A stretch of 64,000 bases of DNA from Eledone cirrhosa (Eukaryota), in contig OZ024740.1 of the NCBI GenBank assembly GCA_964016885.1, positions 172,794,001 to 172,858,000 on the forward strand, written 5' to 3'. A program made the translations under genes and the position numbers. The notes beneath the pieces are model-generated. The model worked only from the letters and a program-made list of their open reading frames with translations, had not been told where the DNA came from and made no database searches. This document shows positions 51,228 to 52,458 of this stretch, in pieces (position 1 is the first letter of the stretch; the number at the start of each line of letters is the position of its first letter).

Positions 51228-51232
<5 letters not shown>

Positions 51233-52454
51233 GAATCACACAGATACATGCGGACACACACATATATACATGAATGCATCCGCACCCAACTGTGAGTTAA
51301 GGGTGCCAACTTCACCGATGTTGCTCAATGAATGACTGGGACAGACCAATTCAGTTTGAACCGGACTGAACCAGTATCAGAGTTAAAAATACATTATGAA
51401 GAGAGAAGAAACATTTAGATATAATTAGTAATAAAATGTATCATACCTAAACTGTTCCTAAATTCCTCGACTACGTAGTTTCGTGGCATAAACAAAAACA
51501 ATATATCAAAGATATAGAGTCCTTGCGAGGTCTGCCGACTTATCAAGAGGATACCTCATTTTACTAGTCTCAAGAACGCGTCTACACGACGTGAGAAAGA
51601 ATCCCAAAAGGCGGAGGGGGAGATAGTCACGCGATATAACGGTCGAGAAACAGAGCTAAGCCTCTTATAACCACGAAGAAAATACCACGGAGGCGGAGGG
51701 GGTATTCATATCGAGGCCGCAGAAGAGGTAGTGAAGAAGGCGAGAAGTATGAGTAATGGAAGCTTTCCAGTTGTCCCCACACTTCAAAGATTGCTCGACC
51801 AGAGGGAGTTAATATATTTAGAATCACACAGATACATGCGGACACACACATATATACATGAATGCATCCGCACCCAACTGTGAGTATACTGGTTCAGTCC
51901 GGTTCAAACTGAATTGGTCTGTCCCAGTCATTCATTGAGCAACATCGGTGAAGTTGGCACCCTTAACTCACAGTTGGGTGCGGATGCATTCATGTATATA
52001 TGTGTGTGTCCGCATGTATCTGTGTGATTCTAAATATATTAACTCCCTCTGGTCGAGCAATCTTTGAAGTGTGGGGACAACTGGAAAGCTTCCATTACTC
52101 ATACTTCTCGCCTTCTTCACTACCTCTTCTGCGGCCTCGATATGAATACCCCCTCCGCCTCCGTGGTATTTTCTTCGTGGTTATAAGAGGCTTAGCTCTG
52201 TTTCTCGACCGTTATATCGCGTGACTATCTCCCCCTCCGCCTTGGGATTCTTTCTCACGTCGTGTAGACGCGTTCTTGAGACTAGTAAAATGAGGTATCC
52301 TCTTGATAAGTCGGCAGACCTCGCAAGGACTCTATATCTTTGATATATTGTTTTTGTTTATGCCACGAAACTACGTAGTCGAGGAATTTAGGAACAGTTT
52401 AGGTATGATACATTTTATTACTAATTATATCTAAATGTTTCTTCTCTCTTCATA

Positions 52455-52458
<4 letters not shown>
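51228..52458. mobile_element. Non-coding 588-nt-period element: 1.12-mer followed by an inverted, circularly permuted monomer
   Basis: 51228-51298 repeats at 51816-51886; 51887-52458 is the reverse complement of 51378 to 51228 continuing into 51815 to 51390. Confidence 0.9.
52298..52385 (+). ncRNA. Hammerhead ribozyme, U3-A8 variant; mirror copy at 51464-51551 (-)
   Basis: TCCTC TTGATAA GTCGGCA ... TGCCAC GAAAC TACGTA GTC GAGGA. Confidence 0.8.

Follow-up and report, generated by a model that had tools for sequence, protein, structure and literature searches.

A 588-nt hammerhead repeat inserted head-to-head and in two phases between TA arrays of Eledone cirrhosa, probably a non-LTR retrozyme mobilised by a Penelope-like element

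How did a 588-nt sequence come to lie twice, in opposite orientations and in different phases, between two (TA)n arrays? Positions 51228-52460 of the window (the whole 64-kb stretch of DNA that was analysed, 64,000 nt) raise this question. We read the locus, with a probability of about 0.8, as a non-coding 588-nt hammerhead repeat of high copy number and of the non-LTR retrozyme type that was inserted recently and was likely copied in trans by the reverse transcriptase (RT) and endonuclease of a Penelope-like element (PLE). The parts of the insertion are as follows.

51048..51227, no strand: (TA)n target, left (TRF array 51048-51229)
51228..51815, minus strand (hammerhead sense): left arm, full pass of the 588-nt unit; the priming point "position 1" forms its outer end and lies 241 nt downstream of the predicted cut
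51816..51885, minus strand: left arm, second partial pass, unit positions 1-70; 100% identity to 51228-51297, with a private letter at unit position 9
51883..51890, no strand: head-to-head arm junction with the 8-bp palindrome AGTATACT, likened to the inverted PLE junctions described in PMC3846280
51886..52460, plus strand: right (inverted) arm, descending through unit positions 150 to 1 and on from 588 to 162; the priming point "position 162" forms its outer end and lies 80 nt downstream of the predicted cut
52461..52524, no strand: (TA)n target, right (TRF array 52458-52524)

The unit (51228-51815) has a GC content of 42%. The left arm, 51228-51885, consists of unit positions 1-588 and then 1-70, or 1.12 rounds, and the first 70 nt of the unit are repeated exactly at 51816-51885 (74 nt when the flanking TA is counted). 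Using a doubled unit as the reference, the reverse complement of the right arm aligned to positions 162-588 and then 1-150, with no mismatches and a single 2-nt gap near position 379. The right arm therefore spans 0.98 of a round, without positions 151-161. The arms are head-to-head in the hammerhead sense, and their phases on the loop differ. Both outer ends are sense-3' ends, show 4-5 nt of TA-like identity to the target and meet (TA)n, at 51048-51229 (a period-2 array by TRF) and at 52458-52524. These results bear out the first-pass annotation, which had described a unit running 1.12 times with its first 70 nt recurring at 51816, an inverted copy starting inside the unit and crossing the end-to-start junction, and (TA)n on both sides; our alignment puts the start of the inverted copy opposite 51377. 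Perfect TA runs make up 12.7% of the window, so that insertion into (TA)n at one locus is, by itself, weak evidence. We found neither further copies of the unit nor an array at the unit period (TRF) elsewhere in the window.

The left and right flanks of the insertion are different sequences. A LINE fragment with an internal inversion (52525-53029) adjoins the element, and a near-complete LINE lies at 55326-58737 (plus strand). The idea that the two flanks represent one interrupted LINE was rejected, because the right flank matches 28785-29198 and the left flank does not.

The longest stop-free frame on the 588-nt loop is 85 amino acids. None of the seven unit frames reached the Pfam cut-off, and a search of 1.84 billion proteins gave one borderline hit (E 1e-3), to an unrelated repeat protein, and no credible homologue. 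Eleven family variants are listed within the 85-residue frame; 4 are silent, 6 missense and 1 nonsense, with no bias toward silent changes. As judged from its sequence, the unit is non-coding, in line with the earlier statement that no convincing ORF is present. We also considered this frame as the remnant of a fused PLE ORF, owing to a "LES...PS" spacing that we took to resemble GIY-YIG ends; Pfam, the variant spectrum and the protein search ruled this out.

Each arm contains one type I hammerhead motif, and strong hairpins are predicted just upstream of both priming points.

51464..51551, minus strand: first type I hammerhead motif, with a U3-A8 core; cleavage predicted after 51469
52298..52385, plus strand: second type I hammerhead motif, with a TTGATAA core, a palindromic stem III and an extended stem II; cleavage predicted after 52380
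52381..52451, plus strand: hairpin A (predicted), lying directly upstream of priming point 162 (z -4.2; 0 of 200 shuffles as stable)
51966..52026, plus strand: hairpin B (predicted), lying directly upstream of priming point 1 (z -5.0; 0 of 200 shuffles as stable)

The motif has a 5-bp stem I (TCCTC/GAGGA), a GAAA, a GUC site and a palindromic stem III, ACTACGTAGT (also written ACUACGUAGU), and the predicted cut corresponds to unit position 242. Its 5' core is UUGAUAA instead of CUGAUGA, with U3-A8 in place of C3-G8, and stem II is closed by G-C and U-A pairs and carries an extension of approximately 45 nt, forming a compound hairpin. The core occurs in only one polarity of the unit. A generic hammerhead descriptor matched three sites in the 64-kb window, namely, the two arm copies and 53952, and none of 3000 Markov-resampled monomers. 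The first-pass annotation had proposed one hammerhead per monomer with a 5-bp stem I, a palindromic stem III and a GUC site at 52380; the descriptor indeed places one motif in each arm, and the predicted plus-strand cut falls after 52380. To that description we add the U3-A8 core, the stem II extension, the invisibility of the motif to Rfam and an active fold that is not the minimum free energy (MFE) structure. Rfam gave no hits in the window at gathering and none to other ribozyme classes; when the search was relaxed to E=10 over the element region, 25 weak matches appeared, none of them a hammerhead and most of them miRNA-like hairpin noise. An exact scan for the motif gave no matches in viral contigs or in metagenome contigs, and two matches in bacterial genomes were dismissed as chance, as they had neither stems I/II nor wider similarity.

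In folding predictions, the active hammerhead lies 8 kcal/mol above the MFE of the circle and 5-8.5 kcal/mol above the MFE in partial transcripts, and the pair probability of stem I is approximately zero in the predicted circle fold. The base of hairpin A can pair with the 3' strand of stem I, which may thus be drawn into the next hairpin, and two hammerhead copies can pair through the palindromic stem III. Hammerhead cleavage is plausible on these predictions, perhaps as a dimer. Only one of nine predicted retrozyme dimers cleaved in the account of Li et al. (10.64898/2026.07.22.740005), so activity of the present hammerhead is not to be assumed.

Two further features were noted by the way. 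The unit contains two copies of CCCCTCCGCC (52150-52160 and 52233-52243), as well as TATAA, upstream of the hammerhead; on a GC-box reading, we take these to be a possible internal promoter. An inverted structure at 47050-47210 gives the same weak hammerhead-like match (TTGAAAA core) on both strands, which is probably a chance match in a palindrome.

PLE sequences, which share the architecture of the insertion, occur in the same window.

16910-19973: PLE-type RT-GIY-YIG frame (GIY-YIG E 0.0028 and RVT_1 E 0.011, weak Pfam support for the window PLEs)
36077-38375: PLE-type RT-GIY-YIG frame
12525-12998 and 21164-21721: PLE-type fragments
11980-13291; 20338-22662 (duplicate 23724-26048); 35532-38132: PLE copies with an inverted 5' arm, in (TA)n
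20551-20591 (core at 20585) and 23937-23977, minus strand: type I hammerhead in the PLE 3' repeat, CUGAAGA core, palindromic AGAUCU stem III

Beyond the weak Pfam support, we take the RT-GIY-YIG frames to be PLEs on a reading of their motifs from general knowledge; a homologue search with a neighbouring PLE protein gave at least 100 hits, nearly all unnamed. Of the four distinct long PLE copies of the window, three lie in TA and have an inverted 5' arm, which stops approximately 45-60 nt before the main 3' end. In the copy at 20338, a type I hammerhead with a palindromic stem III lies 154 and 213 nt upstream of the two ends of the copy, and the 35532 family has a degenerate hammerhead with a CUGACGA core; the motifs at 20551-20591 and 23937-23977 gave no Rfam hit at gathering. 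The 588-nt unit showed no significant nucleotide similarity to the window PLEs, and a translated comparison (tblastn) was empty. The best match, 18 of 20 nt to the PLE at 19052 (E 0.13), was taken as chance. No partner PLE was found among those of the 64-kb window.

In the three copies with an inverted arm, the 45-60 nt tail region reads as a likely ORF start (MTLPKYNN...), and the RT seemingly has a long insertion between its core motifs, together with a GIY-YIG at the C terminus. A second PLE type at 15531-19973 (minus strand) has an RT with a GLYRDD motif, a frameshift near 18930 and a long AT-rich 3' region; neither a hammerhead nor an inverted arm was found in it. The segments 19931-23300 and 23317-26700 form a tandem duplication of approximately 3.4 kb with 99.9-100% identity that spans microsatellites and may be a recent duplication or an assembly duplicate.

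Other repeats are present as well. A non-coding-looking repeat of approximately 556 nt occurs in five full or partial copies with 95-97% identity (9542-10097, 27272-27827, 38759-39166, 39707-40066 and 9123-9439), most with the same start beside (TA)n, and is possibly another non-autonomous element. Short fold-back repeats between TA runs (2021-2295, 7624-7811, 46798-46894 and 50451-50533) have a near-perfect internal palindrome with CGAAACGGCT and may be head-to-head insertions of a further short element. An integrase-like LTR-retrotransposon fragment lies at 40427-42016 (plus strand).

The unit family was examined in four runs, namely, X3 (organism C), X1, X10 and the raw reads of organism E, using one permutation of the 588-nt monomer as the reference for the contigs. 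In X3, 1368 contigs lie on the unit, 549 of them at 99% identity or more, 408 at 95-99%, 223 at 90-95% and 188 below 90%. Their summed depth exceeds 1e5 in all 30 bins of the loop and is 1.3e5 across the 588-to-1 junction, and the share running on into unlike sequence is zero. A joint going back by 588 nt is present in X1, X3 and X10. Among the loose ends listed for X3, beyond which 77 more exist, (TA)n joins the unit before 51389 in at least eight contigs, exactly at the outer end of the right arm, and before 51812 in at least one contig, 4 nt from the outer end of the left arm. These TA junctions indicate that the family reuses preferred priming points and not random permutations. The first-pass annotation had suggested checking whether copies begin at varied permutation points; the two arms do differ in phase, but the ends of the X3 family return to preferred points. 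Depth in X3 rises at 51389 and falls by 51700, which would fit priming at position 162 followed by truncation; summed contig depth is not copy number, however, and the profile carries no weight in our reading. No variants at 5% or above are listed between 51460 and 51673, a region that includes the ribozyme; seven X3 contigs vary in the stem II extension and, in a by-eye reading, keep the inner hairpin through a G-U pair.

Two letters connect the arms. The window has letters of its own at unit positions 9 and 136, where neither the X1 and X10 contigs nor any of the listed X3 depth agrees with it; these private letters recur in three of three and two of two passes, respectively. Because the private letters are common to every pass, both arms and the repeated 70 nt come from one RNA or from one homogeneous source locus. 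The pattern fits a circle read for more than one round, and a uniform tandem source is equally allowed. The closed loop, the shared private letters and the same geometry in nearby PLEs uphold the earlier proposal that more than one round was copied and inserted into (TA)n.

From these data, the following course of events may be proposed. A source locus with at least two units would be transcribed in the hammerhead sense, and the RNA would be either cut and ligated into a circle or kept as an uncut multimer. A PLE protein would then cut both strands in (TA)n, and each DNA 3' end would prime internally on the RNA where TA-like sequence lies immediately 3' of a strong hairpin, at unit positions 1 and 162. 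Two cDNAs of 658 and 577 nt would run through the cut site and the loop junction, and their ends would be joined head-to-head at the 8-bp palindrome; self-priming, as proposed for PLEs (PMC3846280), is an alternative to two primings for this central junction. That the template was a circle has close to an even chance in our estimation, an uncut multimer is a real possibility at somewhat less than even odds, and jumps between cut linear monomers are unlikely. An uncut tandem transcript explains the DNA as well as a circular RNA does. The predicted cut lies within the stretch copied into each cDNA, and a linear monomer cut there would thus be usable only with template jumps. The two priming points are offset by 161 nt, more than the 45-60 nt of the window PLEs and the published tails of 30-40 nt, which is a point against this course of events. 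The inverted arm stressed in the first-pass annotation does conform to a PLE-type pattern, but it is ordinary in PLE insertions as described in PMC8557442 and PMC3846280 and not special to this RNA.

Judging by its sequence, the present copy probably leads no further, as a single hammerhead on each strand would not allow a monomer circle to be released from it. Two consecutive hammerheads on the same strand were not found at the locus, which has one motif per strand, and the short X3 contigs collapse repeats. Read-through of the insertion would give a hairpin of approximately 500 bp, likely a silencing substrate.

Words of the unit were found under many other labels, which raises the possibility of a circular RNA or DNA replicon, or a repeat lately transferred among many species, that occasionally integrates. 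Twenty of the 24 listed runs, none of them on record as RNA, contain unit words, covering 17 organism labels and 16 studies, and 14 runs hold half of the words or more; runs X20, X21 and X24 (small or zero share) and 13 organism labels are left out of the evidence. In X1, the unit is one 621-nt contig forming exactly one closed loop at a depth of 7.8, and in X10 it is in pieces at a depth of 10-13. These depths are low against the values above 1e5 in X3 and, for X1, against 33.8 for an unrelated contig of the same run. X1 and X10 both carry three X3-majority letters; they also have in common a 3-nt insertion that accounts for only approximately 12% of X3 depth, which does not fit perfectly with a simple X3 leak. 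Organism E, with 1.9 Gb of raw reads, gave five aligned reads, all of them partial, less than 90% alike and on a CA/TA stretch, leaving 0 true reads against the 3-11 expected for one copy, an expectation that assumes genome sizes of 0.74-1.5 Gb and is subject to uneven Hi-C coverage. Leak between libraries can spread a very abundant repeat across samples, and the simplest reading of the matches in X1, X10 and organism E is such a low-depth leak. Under the other 13 labels, close relatives or horizontal transfer may also account for the matches. Viroid-like circular RNA replicons have ribozymes in both polarities and replicate from RNA to RNA, in contrast to the unit, whose hammerhead core is in one polarity only, and the viral and metagenome contigs held no exact motif match. 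We therefore regard a replicon or recent transfer as highly improbable. It is likewise a long shot that a closed ribozyme RNA, double-primed by a PLE protein, has lately moved among many animal species almost unchanged; if true, such movement would make the 588-nt unit a host-jumping circular RNA parasite of PLEs.

Three further readings concern the locus itself. The two arms could be 5'-truncated copies of only the pseudo-LTR (pLTR) and tail of an autonomous PLE: truncated autonomous PLE insertions share the architecture, retrozymes are described as resembling pLTRs (10.64898/2026.07.22.740005), and a loose end behind 51356 (median 135 nt) occurs in at least two X3 contigs among the loose ends listed, which may be a subfamily or a partner. 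Past the tail, however, both arms return to the hammerhead after 588 nt and enter no ORF, the X3 depth continues across the junction and the X1 contig closes on itself, and the variants of the only long frame show no constraint toward silent changes. An RT and GIY-YIG ORF between pLTRs is thus absent, given that the loop has no ORF and no X3 share runs on into unlike sequence; we consider this reading quite improbable. A rearrangement of a tandem satellite at the DNA level, by gene conversion or fold-back replication and without any reverse transcription at the site, would draw permuted phases from a head-to-tail repeat and would agree with the near-identity of the arms. It is very improbable considering that both outer ends lie at or beside family priming points adjoining (TA)n and just 3' of hairpins, that unrelated PLE copies nearby have the same geometry and that the window holds a single copy and no array. 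Finally, the palindrome could be an assembly or library chimera (a fold-back read). No strand-change joint is listed in the X3 contigs, although short contigs are uninformative for a single locus, and the 99.9% tandem duplication of the window (20338-22662 vs 23724-26048) may have arisen by duplication in the assembly. In a fold-back chimera, one would expect a mirrored flank and one unchanged phase, whereas here the flanks differ in sequence and the arms, which stop at a family priming point, are out of phase and set apart by a 2-nt indel, so that a chimera is scarcely credible.

The insertion reading agrees with several published systems. Animal retrozymes yield circles of 170-400 nt, and PLEs have been proposed as their mobilising partner (PMC7229834, Cervera & de la Pena 2020). 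As in non-LTR animal retrozymes (PMC7229834; 10.64898/2026.07.22.740005), the unit is non-coding and head-to-tail with one type I hammerhead each, has a GC content below 45%, is present in high copy and co-occurs with PLEs; its length falls within the 51-972 bp range given for retrozymes (10.64898/2026.07.22.740005, Li, Clavereau & Pollet 2026). Of the testable retrozyme features, we found a type I hammerhead in each arm, no coding capacity and a head-to-tail organisation. By contrast, the unit, known here from DNA, is longer than the 170-400 nt RNAs shown experimentally, forms a dispersed head-to-head insertion of 1.12 and 0.98 rounds and not a tandem array, and has a PLE-like U3-A8 hammerhead with an extended stem II instead of the canonical form. 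"Active" retrozymes are defined by at least two consecutive same-strand units with complete hammerheads (10.64898/2026.07.22.740005).

PLEs in general form partial tandems next to which a truncated copy lies inverted, carry a tail of 30-40 bp on one end and are biased toward microsatellites and TA (PMC8557442, Craig et al.), and palindromes have been described at inverted PLE junctions (PMC3846280, Arkhipova et al.). Features of this kind at our locus are the partial tandem with an inverted 5'-truncated copy, a tail equivalent of 161 nt and an AT-rich microsatellite target. Like EN+ PLEs, the insertion has head-to-head arms, a junction palindrome, a TA/AT-rich target and two initiation points; unlike them, it has no RT or GIY-YIG ORF, closes on itself after 588 nt and has initiation points 161 nt apart instead of 30-60. 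A purified PLE protein cuts and extends both strands and prefers AT-rich DNA (PMC11167929, Frangieh et al.). For the PAc/Poseidon PLE, initiation occurs inside a stem-loop 111-118 nt into the ORF and the ribozyme cut is at +26, which places initiation 85-92 nt past the cut, compared with 80 nt for the common priming point of the unit; both ends of our insertion share a few TA-like bases with the target, unlike PAc (PMC11167929). The one PLE tested in vitro preferred unprocessed RNA as its main substrate (PMC11167929).

The U3-A8 covariation was reported in approximately 1,300 Schistosoma motifs found from a PLE, together with pairs of hammerheads on opposite strands at distances of 100-700 bp (PMC4209133, Cervera & de la Pena 2014). 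The present motif resembles these PLE hammerheads in its short helix I (4-5 bp), palindromic helix III, G10.1-C11.1 pair, U3-A8 and opposite-strand pairing of motifs, and differs in a helix III of 3 bp with a palindromic loop, a helix II formed by a compound hairpin of approximately 57 nt, and no unpaired base between 9 and 10.1. MRC1 and other non-autonomous Chlamys PLEs (PMC8557442) are likewise non-coding, PLE-dependent units with pLTR-like and head-to-tail insertions. However, their clade is mostly without canonical hammerheads, whereas the unit has one, and they generally resemble their autonomous partner at the 3' end, whereas the window held no partner for the unit.

The element behaves as a PLE insertion would, without being an autonomous PLE; it is a non-autonomous, probably PLE-mobilised non-LTR retrozyme. 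The 588-nt unit belongs to the known retrozyme class and is no new kind of element, and the partial tandem with an inverted copy, the TA targets, the U3-A8 cores and the circular-template model are all already published. The published text covered here describes no retrozyme insertion with the two-phase head-to-head anatomy. Mobilisation of animal retrozymes by PLEs through circular RNA templates has been proposed (PMC4209133, PMC7229834), and the precise mechanisms are still called unresolved (10.64898/2026.07.22.740005). Against this background, the locus is an unusually clean footprint, with more than one round from one template, two priming points behind hairpins and the geometry of the neighbouring PLEs. 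With ends of this kind, a young family of very high copy number is a direct test case for a circle versus a multimer template, and the same family could show which RNA feature recruits the PLE protein in trans.
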